A stretch of 64,000 nucleotides of DNA from an uncultured virus (IMG/VR IMGVR_UViG_3300016476_001224) (lineage: Duplodnaviria; Heunggongvirae; Uroviricota; Caudoviricetes). The notes below the pieces were generated by a model. It was not told the DNA's origin and ran no database searches. It saw only the letters and a list, made by a program, of their open reading frames with translations. The position numbers and the translations under genes are program-made. The DNA is taken from the IMG/VR virus record IMGVR_UViG_3300016476_001224, one strand, 5' to 3'. Shown here one piece after another: positions 694 to 58,073 of the stretch (positions are counted from its first letter, which is position 1; the number at the start of each line of letters is the position of its first letter).

Positions 694-720
694 AAAAAGA
701 GAGCATTTGCTCTCTTTTTT
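694..720. terminator. Bidirectional intrinsic terminator
   Basis: aaaaaagagagc-attt-gctctcttttt between convergent genes. Confidence 0.8.
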
Positions 721-23494: not shown

Positions 23495-24184
23495 TTATTC
23501 TTCTAATTTTTCAAACCACCAGTTAAAGTAAATGTAATTATCACCAATTAAATTATATGTATCATTGTCATATCTTATTATAATTCTATCATTATGTGCT
23601 CTAACAACCTCTATAACAATTCCTTTTTCCATTTTTAATTGTTTACCAGTTTCAACTGAATAACAAGTAAGTTCATTATTTAATAATCTATACTCTCCAG
23701 GTTCTGGTTTTAACCAAGTTTTAATTGTTTTAGTAATCAATCCTGTAATCTTAATAATCCATTCTCTTGGTTGATATAAGTCTGCATCTTTAAATACCTC
23801 TGATGTTAACTCAGGATTTTGTCCCATTACATCTTCTAATTTACCCCAATACTCTTCTTCACCAATAACAAATGTTAAGTAAATGTCATAACCTAAAGTC
23901 TCAGATTTAACAATTCTTAATATCTTCATTGACTTAATATCTTGTTCTTCTAATGCTAATTTACTTCTAAGTGATCTATAAGCATTAGTTCCTTTAATGT
24001 TATACATAATGTCATTGATTCTAGACATTGCCTGTCTAATAGCATCCTGTGCTTTATCAAATGCATTTGTAGATAATGAAGGATCATCAACATGAGTAGA
24101 TGCTTGAACACTATCAGAGTTCATACGTTGCAAATTAAATTCTGATAGTTCAGTTATTAAATATTTAGACCTTTTATTTTTCAT
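23495..24184 (-). CDS. Hypothetical protein
   Basis: 229 aa ORF ending at hairpin aaaaaagagact..agtctcttttt (about 23467-23496). Confidence 0.7.
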   Translation of the reverse strand: MKNKRSKYLITELSEFNLQRMNSDSVQASTHVDDPSLSTNAFDKAQDAIRQAMSRINDIMYNIKGTNAYRSLRSKLALEEQDIKSMKILRIVKSETLGYDIYLTFVIGEEEYWGKLEDVMGQNPELTSEVFKDADLYQPREWIIKITGLITKTIKTWLKPEPGEYRLLNNELTCYSVETGKQLKMEKGIVIEVVRAHNDRIIIRYDNDTYNLIGDNYIYFNWWFEKLEE

Positions 24185-25079
24185 ATATCTGTTTAATTTT
24201 ATCTTCTATACATTCATTATATTTTATATTTATTAACTTAATATTCATTTTTTCACAGAATTCTTTTTTGATATTATCTCTTTTTTGTATGTTATTAAAC
24301 ATATTAACTCCACCAAAATACTCAATTGGTTCATAATGTTGTCTACCATTAAACTCTATACAAATATTATTATTTGGTAAGTAAAAGTCAAATTTAAGTT
24401 CTCTTATAAATTTACAATCTGTAAATTTATACTCTCTTATATAAGAAACATTATTATCTTTTAATATTTTTATTATATCTCTCTCACCTTTGGATATTTT
24501 ACATATAGGACACCCTACACCATATATATGAGAATGTGCAATTTGGTTAAAAACACCATGTTCTTTACAGATAATATCTAATCTACTATTCATATTATAA
24601 TAACTAACTAGTGAATAATCATATTTATTATTATGTATTATATTACATCTATTAATAAATTTTTTACTATCTATTTTAATACAATTAGGACAATCTTGTC
24701 CTTTTAAATGATTATTAGGAGTTTGTTCAAAAATACCGTGTTCTTTACAAATTATTTTAATATTATTTTTACTACCATTACAATCAACTAATGAATAATC
24801 ATACTTATTATTATGTATTTTAGAAGATTTCTCTATAAATTTTTCTGTATTTAACTTTGCATTCCCTTTACAATAAGGACAATCTTGTCCTCTTAAATGA
24901 TTATTAGGAGTTTGTTCAAAAATGCCATGTTCTTTACAAATTATTTTAACCTTAGTTTTATTATTGATATAGTTAACTAAAGAGTAATCATACAAAACAC
25001 CTCTAACTTCTAAACATTTTTTTAAAAATTTTTCTGTAGAAGATTTTTTGGTTATTCTTTTCATAATTAAACTTTTCAT
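24174..25079 (-). CDS. Putative homing endonuclease: repeated zinc-ribbon modules plus Vsr/PD-(D/E)XK-like nuclease
   Basis: Three YDYSLV...IICKEHG.F.Q....H..G..CP repeats; KFDFYLP...IEFNGRQHY. Confidence 0.75.
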   Translation of the reverse strand: MKSLIMKRITKKSSTEKFLKKCLEVRGVLYDYSLVNYINNKTKVKIICKEHGIFEQTPNNHLRGQDCPYCKGNAKLNTEKFIEKSSKIHNNKYDYSLVDCNGSKNNIKIICKEHGIFEQTPNNHLKGQDCPNCIKIDSKKFINRCNIIHNNKYDYSLVSYYNMNSRLDIICKEHGVFNQIAHSHIYGVGCPICKISKGERDIIKILKDNNVSYIREYKFTDCKFIRELKFDFYLPNNNICIEFNGRQHYEPIEYFGGVNMFNNIQKRDNIKKEFCEKMNIKLINIKYNECIEDKIKQIYEK

Positions 25080-25800: not shown

Positions 25801-26283
25801 TTATAACATATGGTCTGATGCAGATAATATTATATCTCTAACTGTATTAATATTTTCCTCAATTTCTGAACCATCAACTATTTTATATACATAACTACTA
25901 TTTATTATTAAAAATCCATATTCTTCAATAATCTCAAAAAATTCAATTTTTTGGTCAATTTTTAGATGTTCTTTAAAATAGGATAGATATTTATTCAATT
26001 CATTGGTTTTTAAACTATCATATTCTTTTTTAAATCTTATGGAAGGCATTGTATCAAAAAAATGATTAGATATACATTTTGTTAAATCTTCATTACTAAG
26101 TGATTTATATTTTTTTGAAAAATCTAACTTATAAACATAACCATACATTGACCACCATTTTTCAGCATCCTTTTTAATATTTTCATCAGAATCTCTATCA
26201 ACACCTCTTGAGTTTGCAGATGATAGTTCAATTAAATATTTATCAGTATCTTCAAAACTCTCAAATACTTTTAGATATTTCAT
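25801..26283 (-). CDS. Hypothetical protein with leader
   Basis: MKYLKVFESFE. Confidence 0.7.
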   Translation of the reverse strand: MKYLKVFESFEDTDKYLIELSSANSRGVDRDSDENIKKDAEKWWSMYGYVYKLDFSKKYKSLSNEDLTKCISNHFFDTMPSIRFKKEYDSLKTNELNKYLSYFKEHLKIDQKIEFFEIIEEYGFLIINSSYVYKIVDGSEIEENINTVRDIILSASDHML

Positions 26284-26795
26284 TATTTAGTAAATTTCAA
26301 TTTGTAAAGTGTTCTATAAATTAATGCAACAACTTCATCAATAATATTTTGTAAATGTGTATCTTCTGCAGATATAGCTTTTCTACCATGTTTTACAAAT
26401 TCAGCTAAACCTTCAAAGTACTCAATTTTCTCTTTAGTTCTTGTATCATTTGTATCAATTGTTTCATAACCATCAACAATACCATATTGACCTTGGTAAG
26501 TCTCAATTAAATCATCAATTAATTCTAATACACCATCATAGTAATCATTTAAAGCAGTATGTGCAGCATGTGAACCCATTTCACCATTTACTTGTAAGTG
26601 ATAGATGTGTGCCATCTCTCTTGATTCAAATAATTTAGAGAAAAGAGCAACAGGTGTACCTTCTTGAGTTTCAGGTTGTGGTTCAGGTTGTTCAGTCTTA
26701 CCAGTTTCCTCTGGTTGTTTAATATTTTGAGGTAGATTAGCTAAAGCCATTTCCTCAGCTTCATATACTTTTCTAATAGTAGAAAACTTTTTCAT
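26283..26795 (-). CDS. Ferritin/Dps-like four-helix bundle protein (DUF5856-like)
   Basis: AHIYHLQ, HTALNDYYD, DDLIETYQGQYG, LQNIIDEV...TLYKLKF. Confidence 0.7.
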   Translation of the reverse strand: MKKFSTIRKVYEAEEMALANLPQNIKQPEETGKTEQPEPQPETQEGTPVALFSKLFESREMAHIYHLQVNGEMGSHAAHTALNDYYDGVLELIDDLIETYQGQYGIVDGYETIDTNDTRTKEKIEYFEGLAEFVKHGRKAISAEDTHLQNIIDEVVALIYRTLYKLKFTK

Positions 26796-26877: not shown

Positions 26878-27144
26878 ATGAAATATATCAGAAAGTATGA
26901 AAAGTTTGTTGAGTCAACAATGACTGCACCTGCTAAACCAGTTGTTAAACCAGACACAGATACACCAACTAGAACAAAACCTTCAAGACCAGGTGTAGTA
27001 CCAGGAAAAAGACCAAGTGAGGAAGATGCACCTTTGGCAAAATTAAAACAACCAGGAAAAGATGCAACTTTAGAAGATGTTTTCAACAGATTAGTTAAAG
27101 TTTGTAATGAAGAAGGTATAGAACTTAAAAATTTAATTAAATAA
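26878..27144 (+). CDS. Pro-rich small protein with leader
   Basis: MKYIRKYEKFVES; TTAATATATA at 26844-26853. Confidence 0.7.
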   Translation: MKYIRKYEKFVESTMTAPAKPVVKPDTDTPTRTKPSRPGVVPGKRPSEEDAPLAKLKQPGKDATLEDVFNRLVKVCNEEGIELKNLIK

Positions 27145-30941: not shown

Positions 30942-31448
30942 ATGAAACTTAAAAAATTTAATGAAATGTTTGACCCAATGGGAAGTTGGGATCCAAAACA
31001 CCCTGATAATCAAATAGAAAAAGAAACACCAGAAGTAAAGGAAGTATCTAATGAAGATTTTAAAAATCCTGAATATGTTAAGTCTTTACCTGCTAATCCT
31101 GAAAAATTAATAAAGGCATTAGATGAAGGTCTTGATCCAACAACTATGTCACATATTTTACTAAGAGTTTGTTTTAGAGATAATTTAAAAGAGTCTTTTG
31201 AAATACTAATGTCTTTAATTAAAGAAAAAGACCTTAATAGTCTTCAAAAATTATTACTATGTAAATATTCTGCAGAATATGGTAGAATTGAGTTTTTAAA
31301 AGAATTTGAAAGTCTTGATTGGTTTAAAGAGTTTGATGAAACTGACTGGAAAAATTTACTTGAGTGGTTAGAATTATCAAGACAAATGAAAAATAGACCA
31401 GATGATAAAGAAAAAACAAAACAATTTCTATTAAGCTTAAAAAAATAA
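30942..31448 (+). CDS. Leader-bearing paralog of the C-terminal domain of the upstream gene
   Basis: MKLKKFNE; shared GLDP, LR.C, AEYGRIE.L and DW....W...SR. Confidence 0.7.
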   Translation: MKLKKFNEMFDPMGSWDPKHPDNQIEKETPEVKEVSNEDFKNPEYVKSLPANPEKLIKALDEGLDPTTMSHILLRVCFRDNLKESFEILMSLIKEKDLNSLQKLLLCKYSAEYGRIEFLKEFESLDWFKEFDETDWKNLLEWLELSRQMKNRPDDKEKTKQFLLSLKK

Positions 31449-32213: not shown

Positions 32214-32891
32214 CTATTTTAATTTTTCTTTTAACCAATCTACCTTACTTTCATGTACAAGTAAACAAGGACTTGAAGTGAAAAATTCACAAGCACCCTC
32301 TCCTTTATAGTTAGGTGCTAATCCACTACCCAAATAAACCTTGGAATTTGGTAATGTATCAAGTTCTGAAAATGGAACTTTAAAGTTTTCAGTATAATTA
32401 GTTTTTATAAAATTATCTTTACTAATTCTTTTTCCTGAAACTTGGTCAGAATTTTTAATAGAACCACTTCTATCTCTTAATCCCCAAAGATCACATACTG
32501 GACAAAATACAATTTCACTATTATCAAATGGTATAACTAAGTAAATATCACTATTTACTAAAAATTTACAAATCTCTTTATTAGTACCACCAATTAAAGA
32601 GTTTTTTCTAACAACTGGATATTCTTCTGTATCATGTTCAATCTCATTAAAGAAATCTTTAAATGCAAGAGGATCTGCATTTCTTGGTGCAGGTGTAAAT
32701 AATTCTAAATCATACTTTTTATATTTTGATCTCCAAAGTAAATCACTATCAAATGAAAAGTTTTTACAATTACTTTTTAATATCTCTAAAAACTCTTCTT
32801 CATTAAGTTGTTTAGTTCTATTTAATTCTTCTAAATTAGAATCAGGTCTTGCCAAGCTTTCTAAAAATGCATCAAATTTTTTAATTTCCAT
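32214..32891 (-). CDS. Hypothetical protein with leader
   Basis: MEIKKFDAFLES; TTAATATATA on minus strand at 32896-32905. Confidence 0.7.
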   Translation of the reverse strand: MEIKKFDAFLESLARPDSNLEELNRTKQLNEEEFLEILKSNCKNFSFDSDLLWRSKYKKYDLELFTPAPRNADPLAFKDFFNEIEHDTEEYPVVRKNSLIGGTNKEICKFLVNSDIYLVIPFDNSEIVFCPVCDLWGLRDRSGSIKNSDQVSGKRISKDNFIKTNYTENFKVPFSELDTLPNSKVYLGSGLAPNYKGEGACEFFTSSPCLLVHESKVDWLKEKLK

Positions 32892-34240: not shown

Positions 34241-35464
34241 TTATCCGAAAATATCATCTGCATCTGCTGCATCTGTAAATCCATTTGTATCATCATCTTC
34301 TTCAATGATTGCATTAAATTCTTTTTCAACTTCATCAATTTCATCAATAGACTTAAATCTAAAGTAATCATTTACAATTGGTGCCATTTTCTCCAACACT
34401 TCTTGAGTGAATACTTCTTGAGTGAATAATTGTTTAGTTGTTACTGATTTATTTAAGTGGTCAACATACCATCTTGTTCCACCTGGAATGAATTTCATTT
34501 CACCTGTTGATTTATCAACTTCCATTTTACCTTTAGCAATACCAATTTGATTAAAGTATTCTGGTCTACAGAAAGCATCTAATCCTGTGTAAGGATTCAT
34601 ACCATGTGCAAATGATATATCAAATCTAATCTTTTTAGGTTTTGCTAATCTATTTTTCTGTGTTTTAAATAGAACTGAAATACCTGATTGTCCTAAGTCC
34701 ATATCATCTTCCTCACCAGTTTTCAATTTTGATTTACTTAAAAATCCTAATACTGATGCAGAGTAAACAAGACCCATACCACCTTTAGAAATCTCTTTAG
34801 GGAATAAATCTTGAGATAAGTATGTGTGATTACAACAAACCATTGGAATATCTAAGAAACCTAAGTCAGAACTAATACTTCTGAAAAGTGCATTTAATCC
34901 TTTTGCTCTTGTCATATCTTGTTTCATAGCACCTTTTAATAAATCTTCTTTCTCTTTATTAGAAGACATCATACCAATTGAATCAAGTACAATAACAATT
35001 TTAGGGATTTCAAATCCATCCATTTTAGCTTCTTTTAATTCATCCAATAATTGTGTTAAAAAGATATTAATATCTTCAACTTTATTAGATCTAACTAATC
35101 TAAATTTATCTGGTGCATTATCAATACCAAATTTTGTAATACCCTCTAAATCAATTGAGTTCTCGGTATCAATATAAATAATTGACGAACCTGATTTCTG
35201 TGCAGATTTACAAATTGAGTAAGCAATAAATGATTTACCTGCTCCTGATTCTCCTAATAAACCAAAGATACGTCCACCTAAGATACCACCACCAACTAAC
35301 TTAGCTGATAATGCAGCATCCAATAAATAACAACCTGTTGATATAAATTGTTTTTCTTTAACTTCTTTCTCAATAATAATTGGCACTGATTTTGCTATGT
35401 TGTCCAAAATAGAACCAACTTTACTGAACTCAAACTTTTTTCCTTCTTTAACTTGTTTAGCCAT
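34241..35464 (-). CDS. uvsX: RecA/UvsX recombinase
   Basis: ISTG, GESGAGKS, YIDTE, IVLDSIG, DMTRAK, NHTY, GGMGLVYSAS, KNR. Confidence 0.92.
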   Translation of the reverse strand: MAKQVKEGKKFEFSKVGSILDNIAKSVPIIIEKEVKEKQFISTGCYLLDAALSAKLVGGGILGGRIFGLLGESGAGKSFIAYSICKSAQKSGSSIIYIDTENSIDLEGITKFGIDNAPDKFRLVRSNKVEDINIFLTQLLDELKEAKMDGFEIPKIVIVLDSIGMMSSNKEKEDLLKGAMKQDMTRAKGLNALFRSISSDLGFLDIPMVCCNHTYLSQDLFPKEISKGGMGLVYSASVLGFLSKSKLKTGEEDDMDLGQSGISVLFKTQKNRLAKPKKIRFDISFAHGMNPYTGLDAFCRPEYFNQIGIAKGKMEVDKSTGEMKFIPGGTRWYVDHLNKSVTTKQLFTQEVFTQEVLEKMAPIVNDYFRFKSIDEIDEVEKEFNAIIEEDDDTNGFTDAADADDIFG

Positions 35465-35595: not shown

Positions 35596-36318
35596 ATGAC
35601 AAGAACTGAATTTTTAGAAAAAGCTCATAATCAACATGGTTACAAATACAAGTACATAGATTTATCTGATAAAATAATATTATCTGATAAAATAATTATT
35701 GAGTATAATGGTATTCAATATGAACAAAGAGTTTCTAAACATTTAATGGGGAAATGTCCTGAGAAAACTACACCTACAAAGACTACAGAACAATTTATAA
35801 AAGAATCTATAGAGGTTTGGGGTAATAAATATGATTATAGTTTAACTGAATATAAAGGTGCATTAGTTGATGTTAAAATTATTTATGATGGTATAGTTTA
35901 TTTACAAAGACCTACTTCTCATTTAAAAGGTATGGCACCTGAGTTTAGAAGAACTGAGGAATCAATAATTAATGATGAGATGAGAAAAAGTGATTTATTT
36001 GGTGAAACAGAAATACATAACTTTTTGAGAAAATACAAAATACAATTTAAAGAAAGATATAGATTAGGTGAGGTTACTTTTGATTTTTATTTACCAAGTC
36101 TTAGAGTTTGTATAGAGTTTGATGGTAGACAACATTTTGAACCTATTGAGAAGTTTGGTGGTGTTACAACATATGAACGTATTAAATCAAATGATAAGAC
36201 TAAAAATGAATATTGTGAAGAACATTATATTGAATTAATAAGAATAAAGTATGATAAGATTGATGATATTTATAGAACACTATGGGATAGTTTAGCACAT
36301 AAAATAAAAAAGACCTAA
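35596..36318 (+). CDS. Putative homing endonuclease (Vsr/PD-(D/E)XK-like)
   Basis: KYDYSLTEY module; FDFYLPSLRVCIEFDGRQHF; related to 24174..25079. Confidence 0.7.
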   Translation: MTRTEFLEKAHNQHGYKYKYIDLSDKIILSDKIIIEYNGIQYEQRVSKHLMGKCPEKTTPTKTTEQFIKESIEVWGNKYDYSLTEYKGALVDVKIIYDGIVYLQRPTSHLKGMAPEFRRTEESIINDEMRKSDLFGETEIHNFLRKYKIQFKERYRLGEVTFDFYLPSLRVCIEFDGRQHFEPIEKFGGVTTYERIKSNDKTKNEYCEEHYIELIRIKYDKIDDIYRTLWDSLAHKIKKT

Positions 36319-36329
36319 ATGGTCTTTTT

Positions 36330-36650
36330 TTATTTTCTGAATTTATTTGGATATAATGTTCTTAATTCATGTCCAGGTGGAATATCAGATACTTTAATAC
36401 CCATTACTTTTTGTTCAGGTGTTGTATCTTTTCCATCCATTAAGAAATTATTATTACTTGCCCAAACCTCAGCAGTTCTATTAAATAATTGACCTACTGA
36501 AAAACAAAATCTTGTTCCTGTTGGGTTATCAATATCAGTTATTCTACCATCAGGTGATTTAGTAACTTTTATTACAATTCTTGGATTTCTTTTATTAGTG
36601 AAAGTAACAACTTTCTCTCCAAACTCTTCAAATATTTTTATGTGTTTCAT
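36330..36650 (-). CDS. Hypothetical protein with leader
   Basis: MKHIKIFEEF. Confidence 0.7.
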   Translation of the reverse strand: MKHIKIFEEFGEKVVTFTNKRNPRIVIKVTKSPDGRITDIDNPTGTRFCFSVGQLFNRTAEVWASNNNFLMDGKDTTPEQKVMGIKVSDIPPGHELRTLYPNKFRK

Positions 36651-37759: not shown

Positions 37760-37937
37760 TTTGAAATTAGAAATATCTAAGTTAAAACTCTTAATAAATG
37801 CTAAATATGGTGCATATGGTAATAAAAAAGATACTATGTATTATGAACTATTAAGAAAGAGGAAAAAGATTACTGGTATGCTTTTGAAGATAGAGAATAG
37901 AAAGAGAAAAATAGAAAAACTACTATGCAAAATATAG
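37752..37937 (+). CDS. Mini-protein: PolB motif-B-like fragment plus C-terminal tag
   Basis: MSDLKLEISKLKLLINAKYGAYGNKKDTMYYEL...RKRKIEKLL; start overlaps the upstream stop. Confidence 0.6.
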   Translation: MSDLKLEISKLKLLINAKYGAYGNKKDTMYYELLRKRKKITGMLLKIENRKRKIEKLLCKI

Positions 37938-38248
37938 AAGATAGATTTGAAATGGGTACCTGTGTTGTTTGTATAAAAGAATATGAAACACTAAAAGTTA
38001 GAAGTCACTACAACATAAAAGGTTGTGGTGACTTGACTTGGAATGCTGCCACTGATAAAGAAGGTTATGGATTTTGTGTTGAAGATGAATTTGCATCCAA
38101 TAAAAAAGATTGGTGGAACCTTGCCTATTCAGAAAGAGTTAAATGGTATTACTTTACAGAGGAAGAAATGAATGAATATTTTATTACACAAGAAGAGGAC
38201 TTTATAATATATTCAAGAGATCAAAAATTAAAAGAATTAGGTATATGA
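37925..38248 (+). CDS. Hypothetical protein with C-terminal tag
   Basis: Ends RDQKLKELGI. Confidence 0.75.
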   Translation: MQNIEDRFEMGTCVVCIKEYETLKVRSHYNIKGCGDLTWNAATDKEGYGFCVEDEFASNKKDWWNLAYSERVKWYYFTEEEMNEYFITQEEDFIIYSRDQKLKELGI

Positions 38249-38688
38249 ATACAAATGAATTAAGAGAATTACTTAATGAAGTTTTCTTTGAAGATAAATA
38301 TGAGATTACTGAAACTGATTACACAAAATATGATGAAGATTTAGTAAGATTTAATGTAAAAGTTTATTCAAAGAAAATGAATAAACATATGACAATGATT
38401 GTAATACATAATTATATAATAGGTACAACAATATGTAAAGATCTTTGGATAATGGATTGGTCTCTACCTAATCAAAATTACTATATGAGAATACCTGGAA
38501 CAAGTTATAAAAGAAATACTAAAGATGTTGGTGATCCAAAATACTTTTTAATGTTATCAAAAGATAAGATGAATGATATTTTACTCATAAATGAATTAAA
38601 TAATAATTTAATTAGTGATATGAGAGAAATGGATAAAAACCCTATGACTATGACAAGAGACTATAAATTAAAAAACTTAGGAATATGA
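38245..38688 (+). CDS. Hypothetical protein with C-terminal tag
   Basis: Ends RDYKLKNLGI. Confidence 0.75.
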   Translation: MNTNELRELLNEVFFEDKYEITETDYTKYDEDLVRFNVKVYSKKMNKHMTMIVIHNYIIGTTICKDLWIMDWSLPNQNYYMRIPGTSYKRNTKDVGDPKYFLMLSKDKMNDILLINELNNNLISDMREMDKNPMTMTRDYKLKNLGI

Positions 38689-39306: not shown

Positions 39307-39702
39307 ATGGAAAAAGATACAATTATAGTTGAAATGACACCTTTCTTATTTGAGGATGGTAAAACTTATTATTTTGATATTAGAAAAGGTTATAGTAATA
39401 CATATCACTATTTATTTGTTTATAAAAAAGTTGAAATTACAACAGAAAGAAAAACTTGGTTTGGTCTTGGTAAAACTGAAACAAAAGTAACAACTGAATA
39501 TCAGTGTATAAATAAGAATAATGGTGCTTTAGTAAATATAAACTTAAATACAAGAGAAGTTAAAAGTGAAATAAAAAATGTCATTGTTGCCAATCAAGCA
39601 GTTACTAAGATAAAAGATTGGGATGGATTTGTTGGTGATATACCAACAGATGCAAAAATGGCTTTATTAAGGGATTCAAAGTTAAATGATTTAGGTATAT
39701 AA
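39307..39702 (+). CDS. Hypothetical protein with C-terminal tag
   Basis: Ends RDSKLNDLGI. Confidence 0.75.
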   Translation: MEKDTIIVEMTPFLFEDGKTYYFDIRKGYSNTYHYLFVYKKVEITTERKTWFGLGKTETKVTTEYQCINKNNGALVNINLNTREVKSEIKNVIVANQAVTKIKDWDGFVGDIPTDAKMALLRDSKLNDLGI

Positions 39703-40130
39703 TGGAAAGATCAGCAGGAATAATTATAATATTAAATAACAAGAAATTACTTTTAAGTCATCCAACTAATTCAAGATGGAATAATACTTACTCATTTCCT
39801 AAAGGTGGAATTGAAGAAGGTGAAAACCAAATTGAAGCAGCCATAAGAGAACTTAAAGAAGAAACTTCTATTGAAGTAACAGAAGATATGATAATTGATA
39901 AAGAGCCAATTATTGTTCTTTACAATGACAGAAAAGGTAAAATATACAAAGAAGTATATTTATTCAAAGTTTATATAAATGATGTAACTGAAATTGGTTT
40001 AACCAGTGAAACTTTACCAAAAGAAATGTTACAAATTGAAGAATTAGATTGGTGTGGGTTTTTAGATAAAGAAGAAGCTAAAAGTAAAATATTCTACAGA
40101 GTAGAACACTTATTAAACTTAATTGACTAA
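39702..40130 (+). CDS. NUDIX hydrolase
   Basis: Nudix box GGIEEGENQIEAAIRELKEETSI. Confidence 0.9.
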   Translation: MERSAGIIIILNNKKLLLSHPTNSRWNNTYSFPKGGIEEGENQIEAAIRELKEETSIEVTEDMIIDKEPIIVLYNDRKGKIYKEVYLFKVYINDVTEIGLTSETLPKEMLQIEELDWCGFLDKEEAKSKIFYRVEHLLNLID

Positions 40131-40158
40131 GTAAGATATAATAAAGAAAAACTTTATT

Positions 40159-40542
40159 ATGACTACTATTGACTTTGATTATAACTACCAACAACCAAGA
40201 ATTGAATTAAATTTAGATAATCCAATTTTTGTATTTTATATATGTGTTAATGGATTCTCAAGACAAAGAGCAGAGGAATATATGTATCAAATTAGAAGTC
40301 AATTTGATATATATAGTAATATAACAATGTGGATTGTAGCTACTGATGAACCAACAAGAATTGAATGTGTTTATGATGGTAAAGGTAGAACTAAGGATTC
40401 TGAAATTGCTGGATTGATTGAACAGATAAATGAAAGAATTACAGTGTTAGGACAATCCCATACATTTGAAGATTTCAAAATAAATATAAGAGATTGGAGA
40501 ATTGATAAAATAGTTAAACATCTTAATGAAGAAGACAAGTAA
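40159..40542 (+). CDS. Mini-protein: portal clip-domain-like fragment plus C-terminal tag
   Basis: VFYICVNGFSRQRAEEYMYQI...MWIVATDEPTRIECV; RDWRIDKIV near the C-terminus. Confidence 0.6.
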   Translation: MTTIDFDYNYQQPRIELNLDNPIFVFYICVNGFSRQRAEEYMYQIRSQFDIYSNITMWIVATDEPTRIECVYDGKGRTKDSEIAGLIEQINERITVLGQSHTFEDFKINIRDWRIDKIVKHLNEEDK

Positions 40543-40876
40543 AAAAGAAAAATATGATGTAGTCAAACGTGAATTAAACTTTGAGTTTATAGAATGGTAT
40601 GACTATTATGATTATTATGATACTGATTATGATTGGTATTATGATGATATGAATGATTTTTCTTATATTAAGAAGGAATTTTATGAAGAGAAATTACATG
40701 GTCCTTTCTTTAGAAGATCAAAGAGTACAAGTCATTATTTTCCATATAGTATAATTGATATGAATTCCTTTTACTCAAAACAAGAAAGAAGAAATAAAAT
40801 CATAGATGAACTTTTAGGTTATTCAAATCCTAAAGTTACATACAAACCAACATTTGCAGATATATGGAAAGGATAA
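40526..40876 (+). CDS. Tyr/Asp-rich protein with tag motif
   Basis: WYDYYDYYDTDYDWYYDD; RRNKIIDELLG. Confidence 0.7.
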   Translation: MKKTSKKEKYDVVKRELNFEFIEWYDYYDYYDTDYDWYYDDMNDFSYIKKEFYEEKLHGPFFRRSKSTSHYFPYSIIDMNSFYSKQERRNKIIDELLGYSNPKVTYKPTFADIWKG

Positions 40877-41748: not shown

Positions 41749-42179
41749 ATAGAGAAAAACTAAAAGAACTAATAGAAAAAGAAGGAAATTCATTAGAGTG
41801 GGATTATACCTGTTCTAATGGAGTTATTATTAGTTGTTCTATTCATAGAAATAATGTATTTGCTTTATGTGGTTATATTACGCTAACTAAAGACAATTTA
41901 TTATATGGAATTGATTATGATGATATTAATATAAGCGCACATGGTGGTTTAACATACCAAGGATATGATCAAAATGAAAACTATGTAATTGGATTTGATT
42001 GTGGTCATTATGGAGATTTAACACCTTATTTCTTATTTAAAGAAGACTTTCCATTCTATTCTGATGGTGAATATAGAGATATGCAATATGTAAAATCAGA
42101 ATGTGAAAGTATGGCTGAACAAGCATCAAAATTCAGTAAGTCAATTGAAAGATATAATAAAATTAGTCAGATTATTTAG
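41745..42179 (+). CDS. Conserved phage protein (CGY..HGGLTY..GFDC.H) with C-terminal tag
   Basis: Motifs as named; ends RYNKISQII. Confidence 0.75.
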   Translation: MNREKLKELIEKEGNSLEWDYTCSNGVIISCSIHRNNVFALCGYITLTKDNLLYGIDYDDINISAHGGLTYQGYDQNENYVIGFDCGHYGDLTPYFLFKEDFPFYSDGEYRDMQYVKSECESMAEQASKFSKSIERYNKISQII

Positions 42180-42822
42180 TAAGTAATTCTGGTGTAATAG
42201 TTTTTGAAAATACATCAATCATTCTTTCTGAACCACCTCTTGCAGTAATTTTTTCATCTTTGATGATATTAAATACTTTAGTTGTATTTTCTAAATCAAT
42301 ACTAATATTAGTATTTTGAACTTTTACTCTAATGTCATTAAGTTGTTTATAATTAAATCCATTTCTATCAGGTTTACCTTCCCAAGTAATATTATAGTTA
42401 CTATTATTTTCATCTTTACAAAATAATATAATGCTACTAATAAATGTTTGACGATAAGTAAAAGAAGGATTATAGTTACCATATAATTGAAAAGCATGTG
42501 GATATAATCTTAACTTCTCACCTCTTAAAGTAATTTCAATTTCATCACCTGTTTTAATAACATTTTTAACTTCAATAATTATTTTAGTATTGAACTTTTT
42601 ATATGATAAATCTGTTTTTGTTATATCTTTACCATAAGCTTGTAATTTAGTAATTACATCATTATACATTTCAAGAGTTTTATTGAAATCAAATTCTCCT
42701 GTATATTTAAGTGTAAATTCATTTAATTTTCTTTCAATAGAAAATCCTTCATCTGTAAATTCTACAAAATAATCTTCAAGTTCCATTGAACTACTTTCAT
42801 TAAACTTTTTTAAGTGTTTCAT
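42172..42822 (-). CDS. Leader-bearing protein of the D.GF paralog family
   Basis: MKHLKKFNES..LEDYFVEFTDEGFSI; TTAATATATA on minus strand at 42828-42837. Confidence 0.7.
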   Translation of the reverse strand: MKHLKKFNESSSMELEDYFVEFTDEGFSIERKLNEFTLKYTGEFDFNKTLEMYNDVITKLQAYGKDITKTDLSYKKFNTKIIIEVKNVIKTGDEIEITLRGEKLRLYPHAFQLYGNYNPSFTYRQTFISSIILFCKDENNSNYNITWEGKPDRNGFNYKQLNDIRVKVQNTNISIDLENTTKVFNIIKDEKITARGGSERMIDVFSKTITPELLTK

Positions 42823-45294: not shown

Positions 45295-46332
45295 ATGAAA
45301 TTACCTAGTAATTATTGGACAAAAGAAAGGTGTCAAGAAGAGGCGTCAAAGTATAAAAGTCCTAATGAATTGAAAAATAATAATGATTATGTTTATGTAA
45401 AATGTTTCAAATATAAATGGTTAGAGGAATTCTACAAAAACTTTGAAATTAAAAGAGATATTTATTGGACTAAGGAAAGATGTCAAGAAGAAGCATTAAA
45501 ATACAATAATAGAAATGAATTTAGAATTAATTCAAAATCATCTTACACTATTTCACTGAGAAATAAATGGTTAGATGATATATGTTTACATATGATAAAA
45601 AAACCTTCTTCATTTTGGACTAAGGAAAGATGTCAAGAAGAAGCATTAAAATATAAAACAAGAACTGACTTCAAAAATAAATCATATCAAGCATATAAAT
45701 ATTCAAGAATAAATTGTTGGTTTGATGATATATGTTCACATATGCCAATTATTGGTAATATGTATAAAAGATGTATATATTCATTTGAATTTGAAGACAA
45801 TTATGTTTATATTGGTCTGACATATAATATAGATAAAAGAAGTGAAGGTCACTATACCAATATAAGTAGTCAAGTAAATAAACATATTAAAAATACAAAT
45901 CTACTACCTAAATTAACAAAATTAAGTGATTATATTGATGTTGAACTTGCCAAAATAAAGGAAGGAGAATATGTTAAATTATATAAAGATAATGGTTGGA
46001 ATATATTAAATATTCAAAAAACAGGTAATACTGGTGGTATAAGAAAAATAACAGAAGATAAATGTAGAGAGGTAGTTGAAAAATACACATCACTTTCTAT
46101 ATTTAGAAAAGAACAACCTAATATCTATAAAAATATAATTAGATATGATTGGAAACATTTACTCAAAGGTCTTAGTAGAAATACTAAAGAAAGTGGTTAT
46201 TGGACAAAAGAGAAGTGTCAGGAAACTGCATTAAAATACTCACGTAGAATAGACTTTTTCAAAAATGATATTAGTGCATACAATAAAGCACAAAAAAATG
46301 GTTGGTTAGATGAAATATGTTCACATTGTTAA
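45295..46332 (+). CDS. GIY-YIG homing endonuclease with WTKE(R/K)CQE repeats
   Basis: CIYSFEF...VYIGLT....R..H, E and LN; four W-T-K-E-x-C-Q-E repeats. Confidence 0.75.
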   Translation: MKLPSNYWTKERCQEEASKYKSPNELKNNNDYVYVKCFKYKWLEEFYKNFEIKRDIYWTKERCQEEALKYNNRNEFRINSKSSYTISLRNKWLDDICLHMIKKPSSFWTKERCQEEALKYKTRTDFKNKSYQAYKYSRINCWFDDICSHMPIIGNMYKRCIYSFEFEDNYVYIGLTYNIDKRSEGHYTNISSQVNKHIKNTNLLPKLTKLSDYIDVELAKIKEGEYVKLYKDNGWNILNIQKTGNTGGIRKITEDKCREVVEKYTSLSIFRKEQPNIYKNIIRYDWKHLLKGLSRNTKESGYWTKEKCQETALKYSRRIDFFKNDISAYNKAQKNGWLDEICSHC

Positions 46333-52352: not shown

Positions 52353-55300
52353 ATGTGGATATTTAACAAAGATTATAACAAATGGGTTATAACAGAGGAT
52401 CAATTAGCTAAAAGTAATTTTGATTACCTAAAACAAGAACTTGTATCAACAAGATACTACTCAAAGTGTCTTAGTGGTGCTACTTATCTACCAATTAACA
52501 ATGTAGATAATATCTATGATATTTTAGGTGAATATGAAACAAGAAACTGGTACATAGATAGTTCAGGTTCTCAATATTCATATACTGCAATTCCACAAAA
52601 TGCAAGTCCTATCAATGGAATAACTTCAAATAATTACTATACTAAGTATTTATCTGAATATGGTTTGACATTGAAAAACTTATTTACCCCAGATAGACTA
52701 ATAAAGGATTCTATTAATTATTTATATGTTGATGTTGCAACAATAGAAGAAATAAATTTAAGTTCTAAATATACTAATCTTATTATTGATGGTGTTAAAT
52801 TACTTAATGGTCATAGAGTTTTAGTAAAAGATCAAATTTCAACTGAAACTTTACCATTTGATACTGATCCAAATACTTACTTTAAGGGTAATTATACTTT
52901 AGTACAAGACTATGGTGCTACAATAGAATATAGTTACTACAATTCTGAGAATGGTATTTATGTATTTAACAATGGTTACTTAACAAAGACTGATGATTTG
53001 TCTTTATATGAAGATTGTATAAGATATAGTGTTTCAGTTAAATTAGGAACTATAAATACACAAAAACAATTTCATTTAAGTAGATTATTAAATGGATATT
53101 ATCCTACATCATCTTTGAATGAACCTGTTGAGTTTAAAGAAAAACATAATTGGTTATTAAGAAATAGAGTAGATTATAACAATTTATTTGAGATTAACTA
53201 TTATGATGTTTTAAAACATGGTTCACAAACTTATACTATTAATTCAACTACTTATAGTATTCCTGAAAGAACTATTGCAGTTGGTGAATTTGGTGTTATA
53301 TTAAATACACAAGGTGGTATTTCAAATATAATTCCTAATAAATATAAAGTTAATTTAAGAAGTATTACTCAAACAGAACTATACTACTGGATTTGTGGAG
53401 ATGATGGAACTTTATTAAAAGTTAGAAAACATGATTTTACTATAGAAAAGATTGAACTTAATATTATAAAGAATTTAAAATCTGTATCATTCTTTAATAA
53501 CTTAAAAGGTGTTGTAGTTGGTGAATTAAATACAATATTAATAACAAATGATGGTGGTTTAAATTGGAATAGTATAATTGTAGATGATTTTGAATCTTAT
53601 TACTATAATAAAGTTCTTTTCCTTACACAAGATAAAATCTATATTATTGGTAATACTGGAGTATTTATTGAATTAGAGGAAGATATTTCTGGATGGTCAG
53701 CATATAAAAGAAGAATATCTAAATTTATAGATGATTATGAAGAGTATTTATTAGTTGATAATATCAATGATATTATTTATACTAATATTAATTGGCATCT
53801 TTCATATAACTATGGTACACAATCTATTACTGACCAAAAAGAACTACTATTATTAGTAACTGATAATGGTAAAGTAATTGCAAATGACTTAAATTCTACA
53901 ACTAAGTTTGATTTCCTTTATTTAGAATTTCAAACACAATATGGTAATATTAATAATATTATACAGCAAGGGACATCAAGTATTTTTTACTTTTCTGGAG
54001 ATAATGGAATATTAAAATTTGATATTACTAATTTTAACACAATTGGAGATAATATTTATTCTAATAAAATATCAGGCCCTGATGCAGCAAATTTAAGTGA
54101 ATTGTCTGTAAATAGATTATTTGATTACAATTCTAATGATTTATTAATATGTGGTAATACATCTCTATTACAAACATCTACTTATAGTACTCCTTTAAAC
54201 TTTAATATATTAGATTCTACTTTTGAATCAAGATTAAAATCTAAGATGTTATTTGTTGATTATGATGTTGCAAGTAAGTTAAACTTTTTTACTGATGCAG
54301 GTGATTATAGACTACCAAGTTCAACATCATTTAATTTAGTAACTTCATCAGATGATATTACTTATTCAAATAATCATTATTATCTTATGAATCCTAATAT
54401 TAGTGGAAACTTAATATCAACTATAAATGTTGATAGTCAAAGTGTTAATCCTAACAATATTGAGGTTACAATTAATCTATCTAATCCAGTAGGGATAAGT
54501 CATTTATTGGTTAATTTAAGATCACCAAATGGTAATGTAATAAATTTGAAAAGAGTAAATTCAGGAACAGGAACAACACTTGCAAATGTAACATTTTCAA
54601 CATCAACAGAGTATAATTACTTTAGAAATTCTTTAGCTCCTTATACTAGTCATACTTATCAAATGGATAAGATATTATCATTTAATCAATTTGCAAGATT
54701 TGCAATTTTAGAAAATGTTGAACCTGAATTTTTTAATTTTGGTTACAATGCAAATACAAATAACTTAGTAGATTTATTAGATGAGAATGGTGGATTTTAT
54801 GGTAATTGGGAATTATATATTGAATGGACTTCTATTAGTATATTTAGTAGGCCTAGTTTACCAATTACTTATCCAAATGGTACACTAATGGGTTGGGATT
54901 TAACATTTGTTTATTCAAGACCAAATGAAATAGATTTGAATTGTTTATCATTTGAACCTTTAGTTTATGGTCCAACTGCACCAAGTTTTATGACACAATC
55001 AGAAACTAACTGGTTAACATATTGGAAAGATAGACAAAAGACATTTGAATATTATTCTGTTAATCCAGCAGATAAAAATAGTAAAGTTGAAATATCAACA
55101 GACTTTTGTAAAGCAGTTTCTTCTACAAGATATATCTATTCAATAACTAATCAATTGTCAGACATATCAAGATTAGCACCTTCTTTAGTAGATTTAACAT
55201 CTAATAGATTTATTGGTGGTTCAGTTAGTATTTCATCACCTAATCAATTATATGATATTTATTTCTATGGTTACTTAATGATAGTTAGAGTTGATAGAAA

Positions 55301-58073
55301 TTATCCTGTTAAAGTAGGTGATGTAATTAGCTTAACAAGTTCAGTTGTTGATAGTCAGTTTGTAGTTAATAGAGTTGAAACATTGCGTAACCCAACACAT
55401 TTAGGACCTATTTTAAGACAAATAAATCTTGTAAGTAAGTATTTATATATGTATATGGATTTTAATGATAATATCATTACTGAATTGATGAGAACTCAGG
55501 ATCCTATTACTATTACAAACCTAAATAAGTTTACTGATTTAGATGAATTAAGTAATAAATTTAATACACATCCAATATCACATGGTTATGAATTAACATA
55601 TGTAGATAATACAATTACTATAGATAGTAAATTCAACAACATAACATCTTATTATAATTTAGCAACTCAAGTAATTGCCAATGGTGTTGATAATGCTGGT
55701 TTACCTTTAACAATAACAAATGAAATGGTATATACTGATGGATTTTTAAAATTTGGATATACACCAACTTATAATCTATTAGATTATTTAGAAGGACTAA
55801 ATGATACTACAAACCTAGCAACTGCTAAATTTAGAGCAGATAAAGAGTATTATGCAATGCCACATTACAAAGCTATTCCTTTAGAAGGTTCATTAAGTGG
55901 CAACTCATCTGGTCTTTACTTTAATTATAATGGTATTTTTGGTACAAATAGTTCAAATCAAAAACCAAGTAATATATTACAATTTGGTTCAGATTTAAAA
56001 TTAGAATGGGAAAGTATATTCTTAAATACATTTGTTGATATAGTAATGTATTCTGATTCTGATTACTATAATCCTACCAATGGTTCAACATTTAGCACTG
56101 AAAGGTTGTTAGTAACAAAGAAATACTATAATAGTACATATGATACTTATGATATTGAGTTTGGAAAAAGTATAAATTTCCCTATTGGTAGTCAACCTAG
56201 ATTTATTGATATTTTATCAAGAAGAACATTATTACAAATAAGTGAGGATTTACAAGAATTAAATAATATTCAAAGACCAAGATTTGTAAATAAATCAATT
56301 ATTGATAATAATGATAACAACTTCTATAATTATGATAGAACTACAAGTTATAAAATATCTACTGATTCATACACTAAGATTTTATTATCAGATGTTGATA
56401 CAATTAAAGAATTAACTGCAGTTATTTATACTGATTATAAGAATGAATTAGCAATGAATATAACAAGACTTGCTAGAGAATATAATATTAAGATAGCTGA
56501 TACAGATTCATATAATGGTAATTTACTTATTATATGTGGTGAAAAACATGAATTGAAAAATGGAGATGGTGTTGTATTAGAATTTAATGGTGGTACTTAT
56601 TCTTCACAAGTATTAAATCAACAATACTTTGGTTATCATACTGTCAATGTTGTTGATGACTATAAAGTATGGATAGATATTGATTATGTTAATAACACTA
56701 TTGTTAATGATACAGGATATTTGAAATACACTAAGAGTGATCCTTTCTTTAATTATCAACCAGTTGATATAATTGATGTAGGTGTTAATAAAAAAGGTAA
56801 AATTGCAATAGAATTGAATATTGACAATTTAAAATTAACTAATGATGTTTATAGTTTAGTTAATGTAGATTACAACAAATATAGATTTAGATTAATTGAT
56901 GGATTAAACATTGAAACATTATCACTTAAATATCCTTGGATATTAGAAGCAGAGGTTTCTGGTGCCTTATTAGGACTTGACACAAATGGTTTAGTTTGGT
57001 ATAAAGGTTATTGGGAATGTGGTAGATGGTTTGGTGGTACTTGGATATCAGGTACTTGGAAGTCAGGAGACTGGTATGCTGGTATATGGAATTCTAAAAA
57101 GATAACAGATAATTTAATATCAGTTGAAGTAGATAATAGTGTATCAGATACTATACAATCAACTTGGTTTGGTGGTAGATGGTATGATGGTACTTGGAAT
57201 AATGGTACTTGGGTAGATGGTAGATGGTATGGTGGTACTTGGAATGCAGGTGACTGGTATAAAGGTATATGGAATGATGGTACTTGGAATAATGGTATTT
57301 TCTCAGGTGGTGTTTGGGTACTTGGTACCTGGAATGGTGGTGTATTTAATTGTGATAATGAACCTTCTTACTGGATTGATGGTAAGTGGAATGGTGGTGA
57401 CTTTGAAAATGGTATTTGGTATAATGGTATTTTTGAAGAGAAAAATTCACTTTCAAGATTTGGAACAAAAGCTTACAATAGTAGAACTGCAAATTGGAAA
57501 TCTGGTAAATGGTTAAGTGGTAGTTTCTATTCAAGATTAATTACAGATAATAGTGGAGTTCCAGTAACTTCAATATCTCATAAATATTCAATTTGGAAAA
57601 CAGGTATTTGGTATACAGGTGATTGGTATGGTGGTATTTCATATAATATGGATTTTCAATCAGGAAACTGGTATGGTGGTATATTAGAAGATATACAAAT
57701 TATTGGCATTTCCTATAATACTTCTAATCCTGTGGATAGTTATATTACACTAAATGGTGAGTTTGAGTTTAATATTAGTGATGATATACATATTTTAAAT
57801 ACATTTGGAACTACAAGTAGTATTGAAGGTAAATATGAACTTATAAAATGTAAAACAGATACTATAAATAAGAAAACTAAACTTTATATTAGTATTCCTG
57901 ATGGCTATAATACATCTAATGATGATAATGAAACAGGATTAAGAGTAGTTAGTAGATTTAGAAGTGCCAATTGGAAATCAGGTATTTGGACTAATGGTAT
58001 CTATGAAACTGGACTTTGGGAAGGTGGTATTTGGTATAATGGTTTATTCAAAGATGGTGCAAATTGGATGTAA
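52353..58073 (+). CDS. Very large multidomain virion protein (beta-propeller, P-domain-like region, GxWxx repeats)
   Basis: RVLVKDQ..ENGIYV, BNR/Ycf48-like VGE.G.I..T.DGG.NW repeats, LLVNLRSPNG..GNWEL, many GxWxx repeats at about 56990-58070. Confidence 0.7.
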   Translation: MWIFNKDYNKWVITEDQLAKSNFDYLKQELVSTRYYSKCLSGATYLPINNVDNIYDILGEYETRNWYIDSSGSQYSYTAIPQNASPINGITSNNYYTKYLSEYGLTLKNLFTPDRLIKDSINYLYVDVATIEEINLSSKYTNLIIDGVKLLNGHRVLVKDQISTETLPFDTDPNTYFKGNYTLVQDYGATIEYSYYNSENGIYVFNNGYLTKTDDLSLYEDCIRYSVSVKLGTINTQKQFHLSRLLNGYYPTSSLNEPVEFKEKHNWLLRNRVDYNNLFEINYYDVLKHGSQTYTINSTTYSIPERTIAVGEFGVILNTQGGISNIIPNKYKVNLRSITQTELYYWICGDDGTLLKVRKHDFTIEKIELNIIKNLKSVSFFNNLKGVVVGELNTILITNDGGLNWNSIIVDDFESYYYNKVLFLTQDKIYIIGNTGVFIELEEDISGWSAYKRRISKFIDDYEEYLLVDNINDIIYTNINWHLSYNYGTQSITDQKELLLLVTDNGKVIANDLNSTTKFDFLYLEFQTQYGNINNIIQQGTSSIFYFSGDNGILKFDITNFNTIGDNIYSNKISGPDAANLSELSVNRLFDYNSNDLLICGNTSLLQTSTYSTPLNFNILDSTFESRLKSKMLFVDYDVASKLNFFTDAGDYRLPSSTSFNLVTSSDDITYSNNHYYLMNPNISGNLISTINVDSQSVNPNNIEVTINLSNPVGISHLLVNLRSPNGNVINLKRVNSGTGTTLANVTFSTSTEYNYFRNSLAPYTSHTYQMDKILSFNQFARFAILENVEPEFFNFGYNANTNNLVDLLDENGGFYGNWELYIEWTSISIFSRPSLPITYPNGTLMGWDLTFVYSRPNEIDLNCLSFEPLVYGPTAPSFMTQSETNWLTYWKDRQKTFEYYSVNPADKNSKVEISTDFCKAVSSTRYIYSITNQLSDISRLAPSLVDLTSNRFIGGSVSISSPNQLYDIYFYGYLMIVRVDRNYPVKVGDVISLTSSVVDSQFVVNRVETLRNPTHLGPILRQINLVSKYLYMYMDFNDNIITELMRTQDPITITNLNKFTDLDELSNKFNTHPISHGYELTYVDNTITIDSKFNNITSYYNLATQVIANGVDNAGLPLTITNEMVYTDGFLKFGYTPTYNLLDYLEGLNDTTNLATAKFRADKEYYAMPHYKAIPLEGSLSGNSSGLYFNYNGIFGTNSSNQKPSNILQFGSDLKLEWESIFLNTFVDIVMYSDSDYYNPTNGSTFSTERLLVTKKYYNSTYDTYDIEFGKSINFPIGSQPRFIDILSRRTLLQISEDLQELNNIQRPRFVNKSIIDNNDNNFYNYDRTTSYKISTDSYTKILLSDVDTIKELTAVIYTDYKNELAMNITRLAREYNIKIADTDSYNGNLLIICGEKHELKNGDGVVLEFNGGTYSSQVLNQQYFGYHTVNVVDDYKVWIDIDYVNNTIVNDTGYLKYTKSDPFFNYQPVDIIDVGVNKKGKIAIELNIDNLKLTNDVYSLVNVDYNKYRFRLIDGLNIETLSLKYPWILEAEVSGALLGLDTNGLVWYKGYWECGRWFGGTWISGTWKSGDWYAGIWNSKKITDNLISVEVDNSVSDTIQSTWFGGRWYDGTWNNGTWVDGRWYGGTWNAGDWYKGIWNDGTWNNGIFSGGVWVLGTWNGGVFNCDNEPSYWIDGKWNGGDFENGIWYNGIFEEKNSLSRFGTKAYNSRTANWKSGKWLSGSFYSRLITDNSGVPVTSISHKYSIWKTGIWYTGDWYGGISYNMDFQSGNWYGGILEDIQIIGISYNTSNPVDSYITLNGEFEFNISDDIHILNTFGTTSSIEGKYELIKCKTDTINKKTKLYISIPDGYNTSNDDNETGLRVVSRFRSANWKSGIWTNGIYETGLWEGGIWYNGLFKDGANWM

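Follow-up and report, generated by a model that had tools for sequence, protein, structure and literature searches.

The 64,000-nucleotide stretch of DNA analyzed here (IMG/VR record IMGVR_UViG_3300016476_001224, from an uncultured virus of the Caudoviricetes; the whole of it is hereafter called the window) encodes a 127-aa protein (P0001, hereafter the mini-protein), of which a segment of about 25 residues resembles the clip tip of the portal protein of its own phage lineage, viz., the part with which the T4 portal gp20 docks the large terminase. We favor, with a probability of roughly one in three, the reading that it is a tagged micro-protein displaying the docking tip of the portal, most likely to the large terminase. 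The gene extends from 40159 to 40542 on the plus strand, with an ATG start and the stop codon included. An earlier note, made from the letters of this DNA, had described it as a stand-alone portal clip-like mini-protein, and the open reading frame (ORF), the length of 127 aa, and the residues quoted there are all borne out by the sequence and its translation. The gene and the parts of its product, with the basis of each assignment in parentheses (AF2, AlphaFold2; HMM, hidden Markov model), are:

40159–40542, plus strand: gene of the mini-protein (ORF call and translation; family of 174 matches or 211 representative clusters)
40192–40392, plus strand: predicted N-terminal β-α-β-β domain, residues 12–78 (AF2 of the domain alone, with which the full-length model agrees)
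40231–40305, plus strand: portal clip-tip look-alike, residues 25–49, VFYICVNGFSRQRAEEYMYQIRSQF (BLASTP, hhalign, shuffles, reciprocal HMM searches with hmmsearch, column counts)
40393–40536, plus strand: predicted helical hairpin, residues 79–126, with helices at 79–98 and 103–126 (AF2 full-length model)
40489–40512, plus strand: C-terminal tag R-D-W-R-I-D-K-I, residues 111–118, followed by nine residues (regular-expression scan with positional control)

Likeness to the portal tip of the same lineage

Matches to the Portal_T4 family are found in 9 of the 17 records that carry the mini-protein (E ~1e-57 to 1e-62). A portal is present in all three records rated at least 90% complete and in both records of 0.63–0.64 Mb, and the eight records with no portal match are 4–84% complete. 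The contigs closest to the window (4–16% complete) have no portal, so that the portal of the window phage itself is unseen. The portals of the lineage are 555–594 aa long as open frames (the ORF L027 used below has 575 aa), and the large terminase (TerL) of the lineage is of the gp17 type (36% identity with gp17 over 237 residues). Where gp20 has its residues 284–304, these portals read ...F-T-I-P-I-K-G-[LM]-S-R-Q-R-A-E-E-Q-I-G-Q-L-I..., and the matching stretch of the mini-protein reads ...F-Y-I-C-V-N-G-F-S-R-Q-R-A-E-E-Y-M-Y-Q-I-. BLASTP aligns the mini-protein with the portal L027 at this homologous position with 15 identities over 37 residues (E 2e-4), and a distant family member (P0213) aligns with the portal with 12 identities over 18 residues (E 1e-4). 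A comparison by hhalign of 98 family members with 22 portals, including that of T4, recovers the match over 31 columns with a probability of 91.5% (E 8.7e-7) and a score of 49.5, against 14.4 ± 2.3 (maximum 25) for 150 column shuffles. A profile match with portals, of the kind that the earlier note had suggested looking for, exists, and its proposal therefore survives its own refutation rule, which called for an unrelated fold coupled with the lack of any profile hit.

The motif was spotted by eye before these tests, and genome-wide scans, which are independent of the choice of the pair, were added. They were run on 460 ORFs of a 385-kb relative (G001), called with a simple caller of our own (ATG starts, at least 45 aa, greedy and non-overlapping). 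The family HMM has the portal as its best non-self match among these ORFs (E 4.4e-5, in two weak stretches), and, reciprocally, an HMM of the clip tip built from the portal columns of gp20 279–312 has the mini-protein as its best non-self match (E 4.4e-6, the next being at 0.74); with T4 left out of this HMM, the mini-protein is still matched with E 0.0033. At E ≤ 0.01 the tip profile retrieves only the portal and the mini-protein in this genome. Profiles of the whole clip and of the stem plus clip, both including T4, likewise place the mini-protein first among the non-self matches (E 9.1e-4 and 0.0054, respectively). When run against the 98 family members, the tip profile recovers 41 of them at E ≤ 0.01 and 66 at E ≤ 1.

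Across 268 sequences of the family, the commonest residues in nine columns of this segment are G-M-S-R-Q-R-A-E-E, with L second at position 2, and fit the portal nonamer G-[LM]-S-R-Q-R-A-E-E at nine of nine positions. Individual members vary, with 12 of the 251 scorable ones matching at all nine positions and a mode of six, and it is the deep-branching members that come closest to the portal tip. In G001, the DNA of the portal segment and that of the mini-protein segment are identical at 39 of 78 positions and the shared Ser and Arg residues are specified by different codon families, which argues that the likeness was kept or reached at the protein level, with no recent gene conversion. Two further candidate signals were discarded. 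A second weak stretch, in which residues 35–77 align with the portal wing (144–190), was treated as noise, the match not being reciprocal: the wing profile gives E 0.16 or does not list the mini-protein and finds 2 of the 98 members at E ≤ 0.01. A possible co-variation, in which LR756502, the one portal with an S to P change in its tip, is paired with a mini-protein that has P at the aligned position, is weak, P being present there in 41 of 257 members.

Comparison with T4 gp20

PMC4493910 describes the T4 clip (gp20 279–358) as comprised of three strands and helix α6, with a sheet that spans two subunits; gp17, the packaging ATPase, attaches to it, and later the neck does. Four residues at its tip, N291, M292, R295, and K296, point toward gp17, and packaging is lost on double changes of them to alanine; further, a 24-residue peptide of gp20 (288–311) inhibits packaging and binds gp17 (Lin, Rao & Black 1999, cited in PMC4493910). 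With the gp20 sequence taken from the T4 record, BLASTP aligns residues G32, F33, Q36, and R37 of the mini-protein with exactly these four positions, N291, M292, R295, and K296. The gp20 strings given in the earlier note are correct (284–304 and 334–350). The first of the two blocks that it had aligned is indeed the best high-scoring segment pair returned by BLASTP, ungapped between residues 25–45 and gp20 284–304, with 5 of 21 identities and an E value of 0.43 that, as a single pairwise comparison, is not above chance when taken alone. The second block (MWIVATDEPTRIECV against YWLQRRDGKAVTEVDTL) is not confirmed: BLASTP does not return it, and it appears only in a low-confidence greedy extension of the hhalign alignment.

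The Pfam model of the T4 portal family (PF07230, Portal_T4) does not match the mini-protein in hmmscan at E ≤ 1, the portal family is absent among the matches listed (25 of 39 families) for the 98 members at E ≤ 0.05, and a profile search of the PDB at E ≤ 10 returns seven sequences with no portal among them. At 127 aa, the mini-protein does not have the full portal architecture of wing, stem, clip, and crown (~520–590 aa). What stands of the proposed clip mimicry is therefore a tip of ~25–31 residues, comprised of the end of a strand, a turn, and a helix, which is supported by BLASTP, hhalign, and the HMMs; over the remainder of the clip, these comparisons detect no similarity with confidence.

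Predicted structure

The AF2 model of the full-length protein (predicted local distance difference test score, pLDDT, 81.5; predicted template modeling score, pTM, 0.46) has a strand at 23–29, a helix at 35–49, strands at 56–62 and 67–72, and two further helices at 79–98 and 103–126. The N-terminal domain modeled alone reaches pLDDT 91.3 and pTM 0.72, with the same three strands and the same helix 35–49. The order of its elements, β-α-β-β, is that of the clip as described for T4 (three β-strands and helix α6; PMC4493910). Six fold searches were carried out, three with the whole model (Foldseek against the PDB, VIA-wide, and BFVD) and three with the N-terminal domain (Foldseek against the PDB, VIA-wide, and a second look with VIA, 949 chains). 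Their best rows are generic, viz., helical hairpins with Z up to 6.7 and thioredoxin-like, DegV, or DinI units with Z up to 4.3. A complex prediction pairing the mini-protein of G001 (60-row alignment) with residues 1–445 of the TerL of G001 (22-row alignment) gave a score of 0.00, which is no evidence either way.

A conserved family of huge phages

A word-indexed search recovers 174 relatives of the mini-protein with lengths of 69–223 aa, and a search of every protein with no limit on length recovers 211 representative clusters (at 50% identity) at E ≤ 0.001, of which the 150 listed are all 47–190 aa long. As the sizes are small in the length-unrestricted search too, the mini-protein is a stand-alone protein and not a fragment of a longer one. 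These proteins form a conserved stand-alone family of huge T4-like environmental phages, with copies on viral contigs of up to 476 kb and in two deposited genomes of uncultured phages of 0.63–0.64 Mb. The contigs closest to the window are 32–92 kb long at their rated completeness of 4–16%, and hence point to a genome of about half a megabase. Fifty close relatives share an invariant block near the start (L-N-L-x-N-P-I-F-V-x-Y) and another near the end (F-E-D-F-K-I-N-I-R-D-W-R); across 98 distant relatives, P22 is invariant and I23, F24, Y27, N54, and R111 are each at least 90% conserved.

Scans of the mini-protein against Pfam, PHROGs, NCBIfam, and PADLOC find no family, and Pfam and PHROGs scans of the 98 relatives find no family that covers them. 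The sole row of an hmmscan at E ≤ 1 is DUF7357 (E 0.019, below its cut-off), and the ESM Atlas offers only a nameless viral cluster (0.84). PA5033_fam, which was matched by the G001 homolog only (E 0.0014, 17 bits against a cut-off of 100), was dismissed as weak, and the label 'antirestriction protein' on one homolog is unsupported, as it comes from a single record and a single source. The family profile has no match in the T4 genome, an empty answer that, from this search, carries no weight.

Gene neighborhood and expression

The elements flanking the gene in the window are:

39702–40130, plus strand: NUDIX hydrolase gene, the usual upstream neighbor (Pfam NUDIX, E 6.3e-14; directly upstream in 19 of 24 loci)
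40137–40142, plus strand: TATAAT within a conserved TATAA-type box, ~17–22 nt upstream of the start codon (read from the sequence; locus comparison)
40526–40876, plus strand: next116, a gene for a protein of 116 aa, the conserved downstream partner (directly downstream in 21 of 24 loci)

The loci compared are the window and 23 related ones, one further fetched locus having been left out because the ORF of the mini-protein was not called in it. In the window, a gap of 28 nt separates the NUDIX gene from that of the mini-protein, and the start of next116 overlaps the final 17 nt of the latter. Overlaps of 1–20 nt are found in 21 of the 22 loci that have next116, which suggests coupled translation, such that the mini-protein and the next116 product are probably made together. 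Other genes recurring nearby are those for a ligase-like protein, a phosphoesterase, and a second NUDIX protein. In G001, the portal gene lies at ~36 kb, the terminase gene at ~50 kb, and the mini-protein gene at ~151 kb. The next116 product has a basic start and an acidic stretch that is rich in Trp, Tyr, and Asp and, in some relatives, in Cys. Its conserved helix, ...I-D-M-x-S-x-Y-S-K-x-x-L-R-Q-K-R-I-x-x-x-L-G-I..., has the form of the tag, in this case at an internal position with 15–25 residues following it. Scans of the next116 product against Pfam, PHROGs, NCBIfam, and PADLOC find no family.

The earlier note had assigned a middle-type promoter to the mini-protein gene. The pattern on which it drew, AAAC-N18-TATAAT, is literally present at 40115–40142; nevertheless, with 1.4 occurrences expected, the two in the window are at the level of chance (42 of 100 shuffles have as many), and the class assignment is unsupported. 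This pattern was the means by which a recurring upstream box at fixed spacing from the –10 element was tested, and no search with the consensus of the T4 MotA box itself was made. Generic sigma-70-like sites are not enriched in the window either (42 against 51.9 ± 7.8). The TATAA element itself is found within 35 nt upstream of the gene in 23 of the 24 loci, as against 131 of 507 other ORFs of the same loci, and TATAA[AT]A before starts is ~3.4-fold enriched in G001 (89 ORFs against 26 sites expected). Given this conservation and enrichment, it is plausible that the box is the gene's own promoter. The box resembles what we take to be the T4 late core, TATAAATA. In one wastewater metatranscriptome run, two 151-nt contigs are identical to the NUDIX gene (39676–40003, plus strand; depth 2), and the region of the mini-protein gene is met by just short unlike pieces, which are no evidence on its transcription or its start. 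Judging from this identity, the same or a near-identical phage is present in the wastewater library, which does not thereby show transcription.

The window as a whole is AT-rich, with 27.0% G+C, and codes for replication and recombination proteins of the T4 style, namely a family B DNA polymerase, a DnaB-like helicase, a UvsX-like recombinase, a RuvC-like resolvase, and PhoH, along with tail-fiber-like proteins. A megablast comparison of 12 kb of it with deposited phage records found no match at the DNA level. The DNA polymerase ORF (2305–3834, plus strand; 509 aa) matches positions 84–503 of the 856-position phrog_262, and this polymerase may be split, with the remainder encoded elsewhere. 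An ORF of 1906 aa (52353–58073, plus strand), whose translation has repeats of the G-x-W-x-x-G-x-W type filling the C-terminal third, has no PHROG match at E ≤ 0.001. Internally repeated Cys/His modules are seen in the translations of five ORFs, viz., 24174–25079 (minus), 35596–36318 (plus), 45295–46332 (plus), 58731–59756 (minus), and 12646–13695 (plus), e.g., ...I-C-K-E-H-G-I-F-E-Q-T-P-N-N-H-L... three times and ...W-T-K-E-R-C-Q-E-E-A-L-K-Y... four times. From their translations, these look like free-standing genes of the homing-endonuclease type.

Address-like motifs

The tag noted earlier in the mini-protein is present at residues 111–118, nine residues from the end, and the motif is strongly C-terminal in these phages. 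Within 12 residues of the C-terminus, the pattern R-[DNESQ]-x-[KR]-[LIVM]-x-x-[LIVM] is carried by 5 of the 79 window ORFs, where its internal rate predicts 0.27, and by 32 of the 460 ORFs of G001, where 0.84 are expected; it commonly ends two residues before the stop. The tag, in the form R-[DN]-x-[KR]-[LI]-x-x-[LI], is found on ~6–7% of the ORFs of these phages. In the mini-protein family, R111, W113, and R114 are invariant in the 50 close relatives, and R111 retains its conservation of at least 90% in the 98 distant ones.

The other four tagged proteins of the window are encoded at 720–1352 (minus), 37925–38248 (plus), 38245–38688 (plus), and 39307–39702 (plus), with the ends ...RDLKLSQILE, ...RDQKLKELGI, ...RDYKLKNLGI, and ...RDSKLNDLGI, and the 2.3 kb upstream of the mini-protein gene contain three of them. 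G001 codes for a tagged protein of 112 aa (206043–206381, plus strand, inside L120) that ends in ...N-V-R-D-W-K-I-K-N-I-L-K and shares only the C-terminal half, i.e., the last strand, the hairpin, and the tag, with the mini-protein homolog (30% identity over 63 aa; hmmsearch E 1.1e-4). On the basis of this pair, the hairpin and tag may constitute a reusable module. The idea that tagged proteins in general are copies of large phage proteins found no support, as BLASTP within G001 at E ≤ 0.01 gave only this 112-aa relative of the mini-protein.

A second motif, of the type M-K-H-L-K-K-F-E/N-x-F, is N-terminal and is absent from the mini-protein. Against expectations of 0.11 for the window and 1.0 for G001, the pattern [LIVM][KR][KRVI][FY][ENDS], starting in the first nine residues, is found in 14 of the 79 ORFs of the former and 27 of the 460 of the latter. 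Those in the window are 1422–1763 (plus), 6156–6668 (minus), 13732–13965 (plus), 13946–14200 (plus), 14203–14655 (plus), 14684–14917 (minus), 14920–15171 (minus), 25801–26283 (minus), 26283–26795 (minus), 26878–27144 (plus), 30942–31448 (plus), 32214–32891 (minus), 36330–36650 (minus), and 42172–42822 (minus). A 101-aa protein of G001 with this motif (317020–317325, minus strand, inside L126) is weakly similar to the region of the portal clip hairpin, with E 0.0028–0.015 for portal profiles lacking T4 and 0.61 for those including it; this likeness is possibly noise.

Proposed mode of action and rival explanations

We propose that the mini-protein is a three-part molecule, in which a compact β-α-β-β domain would present, in monomeric form, the strand-turn-helix tip copied from the portal clip of its own phage and is followed by a helical hairpin and then by the C-terminal tag. 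In T4, it is with this segment that gp20 docks the large terminase, and the most likely partner of the mini-protein is therefore whichever molecule reads the tip. The large terminase would be the most probable reader, and this gains indirect support from the fact that the matched gp20 segment is that of the published peptide 288–311, which binds gp17 and inhibits packaging. The mini-protein might park or regulate the terminase until proheads present twelve tips at once; alternatively, it might compete with the portal for the terminase, a role that the earlier note had also considered. The tag, in turn, could tether it to a common partner of the tagged proteins.

Several observations weigh against this proposal. 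The portal likeness is short, covering ~25–31 residues (about 25–49 of the mini-protein), and although a greedy hhalign alignment runs on collinearly past the tip into the clip hairpin, its confidence there is low. Shuffles that preserve blocks of eight columns, and leave the nonamer intact, score 27 on average and once 52.9, so that a short motif block carries much of the signal. When T4 is omitted, the mini-protein is the second non-self match for the whole clip (E 0.13) and for the stem plus clip (E 0.2), and a six-frame search of five records with the family profile does not list the portal at E ≤ 10. Just 81 of the 251 scorable members match the nonamer at seven or more positions, and the portal tip is invariant in eight paired phages, whereas their mini-protein copy drifts (e.g., SRQSAEE, SPQVAEE, TRQSGIE, STERANE); the positions aligned with M292 and K296 of gp20 are among the variable ones. 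None of the six fold searches, with the whole model or with the N-terminal domain, finds a portal at a significant score, and the portal or 'capsid assembly protein' rows in BFVD are weak (8 among 50, E 0.05–0.43); however, a comparison of single-chain folds is a poor test, because the clip sheet of T4 is built from two subunits. The gene also sits amid genes of the nucleotide-metabolism type, outside the packaging module, and a phage that blocks its own terminase needs an extra regulatory story.

Part of this evidence would fit a tip that survives as a relic of an old partial duplication, or one that arose by convergence as a strand-turn-helix cap, in a protein whose job is unrelated to packaging and which, as one of many tagged small accessory proteins, would act with next116 and the tag reader on another target. 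We consider this the main rival, and only slightly less probable than the favored reading. It agrees with the large share of the score that comes from one nonamer and with the drift of the motif in many members, with the location of the most conserved positions (P22, I23, F24, Y27, N54, R111) elsewhere in the protein, and with a context of NUDIX, ligase-like, and phosphoesterase genes in which the coupling to next116 is tight. The 112-aa tagged protein of G001, which has only the C-terminal half in common with the mini-protein homolog, and the divergence of the DNA segments (39 of 78 identical, in differing codon families), which indicates no recent exchange with the portal gene, are further points in its favor. 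Yet the commonest residues of the 268 sequences still fit the portal nonamer at every position and the deep-branching members are the best matches to the portal tip; moreover, a reciprocal best non-self match among 460 ORFs is unexpected for a random cap motif.

Other explanations keep the tip and change its reader. The mini-protein could be a decoy, as the earlier note had suggested, directed at an immune sensor of the host that recognizes the clip tip of new portals, the abundant monomer soaking up the sensor and blocking its assembly. Being exposed and invariant, such a tip would make a plausible target for recognition. The mini-protein drifts faster, as conflict genes typically do, and portals are established triggers of bacterial immunity, through Avs4 and the ring sensor RAZR (PMC13017515). 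However, RAZR reads the assembled dodecameric portal ring, Avs4 binds the phage protein as a monomer and then tetramerizes, and in that part of the source neither is shown to read a 25-residue tip (PMC13017515). A decoy should also track its invariant target, yet the copy drifts, and neither the mini-protein nor the next116 product belongs to a PADLOC family; we regard a decoy of this kind as unlikely. It is quite unlikely that the mini-protein and the acidic next116 product, both of them tagged, would together form a two-piece dummy of the packaging vertex, with a portal tip and a DNA-like acidic surface, that captures the terminase or baits a host sensor of the portal-terminase interface. 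A portal assembly or capping factor, which by strand pairing with the clip would hold a free portal monomer until ring assembly, would make use of the clip-like first strand and the hairpin; nevertheless, AF2 closes the three strands into a sheet of their own with high confidence, and the likeness to the clip hairpin is of low confidence, all of which makes such a factor very unlikely. Finally, DinI (1ghh) tops one list of the second-look fold search (Z 4.1, root-mean-square deviation 3.5, 51 aligned residues) and is given a probability of 0.51 in another search, and the window has a UvsX-like gene (34241–35464), as would suit a small DinI-like regulator of the phage UvsX/RecA-type recombinase. 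That Z value is tied with many generic thioredoxin-like rows, though, and no DinI family appears in the Pfam scan of the mini-protein (E ≤ 1) or among the matches listed (25 of 39 families) for the 98 members, leaving this role exceedingly improbable.

Relation to known systems and significance

MicroProteins and dominant-negative small proteins of plants and animals copy one interaction module of a larger protein. Like them, the mini-protein keeps only the contact element of a larger protein of the same genome, which suggests titration of a partner; unlike them, it has the copied element as ~25 residues in an otherwise unrelated fold. Phage satellites encode packaging-interference proteins that bind the small terminase of the helper and, to our knowledge, do not mimic the portal. 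These are likewise small proteins, and the mini-protein too would act on a terminase to control packaging, but they come from a parasite of the phage and act on the small subunit, whereas the mini-protein is encoded by the phage itself. With the T4 clip and the gp20 288–311 peptide, the mini-protein shares the strand-turn-helix and the β-α-β-β order, and the gp20 residues aligned with it are those that dock the terminase. It differs in being a natural, stand-alone, folded protein of 110–140 aa with its own hairpin and tag, gp20 being a ring protein of 570 aa; the peptide, for its part, is synthetic and binds gp17, while terminase binding by the mini-protein is a prediction. Among literature titles and the opening parts of abstracts, we found neither microProtein-type copies of the phage packaging machinery nor a natural mimic of the portal tip, and the available part of PMC13017515 contains neither the word 'clip' nor the word 'decoy'.

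If the tip engages the terminase, the synthetic gp20 peptide that blocks packaging in T4 would have in the mini-protein its first natural counterpart, and the phage would regulate, or compete for, its own motor by means of a micro-protein copy of the docking site. If the tip is instead read by a host sensor, the mini-protein would represent a new kind of anti-defense decoy, derived from a conserved structural epitope of the phage itself. Were the two-piece dummy to be true, huge phages would run a tag-addressed system of self-mimicking bait proteins. Either way, the family offers a nine-residue, testable handle on portal-terminase recognition in uncultured phages of 0.4–0.6 Mb, along with a link to two unexplained address-like motifs that are found, depending on the motif and the genome, on ~6–18% of the ORFs counted.

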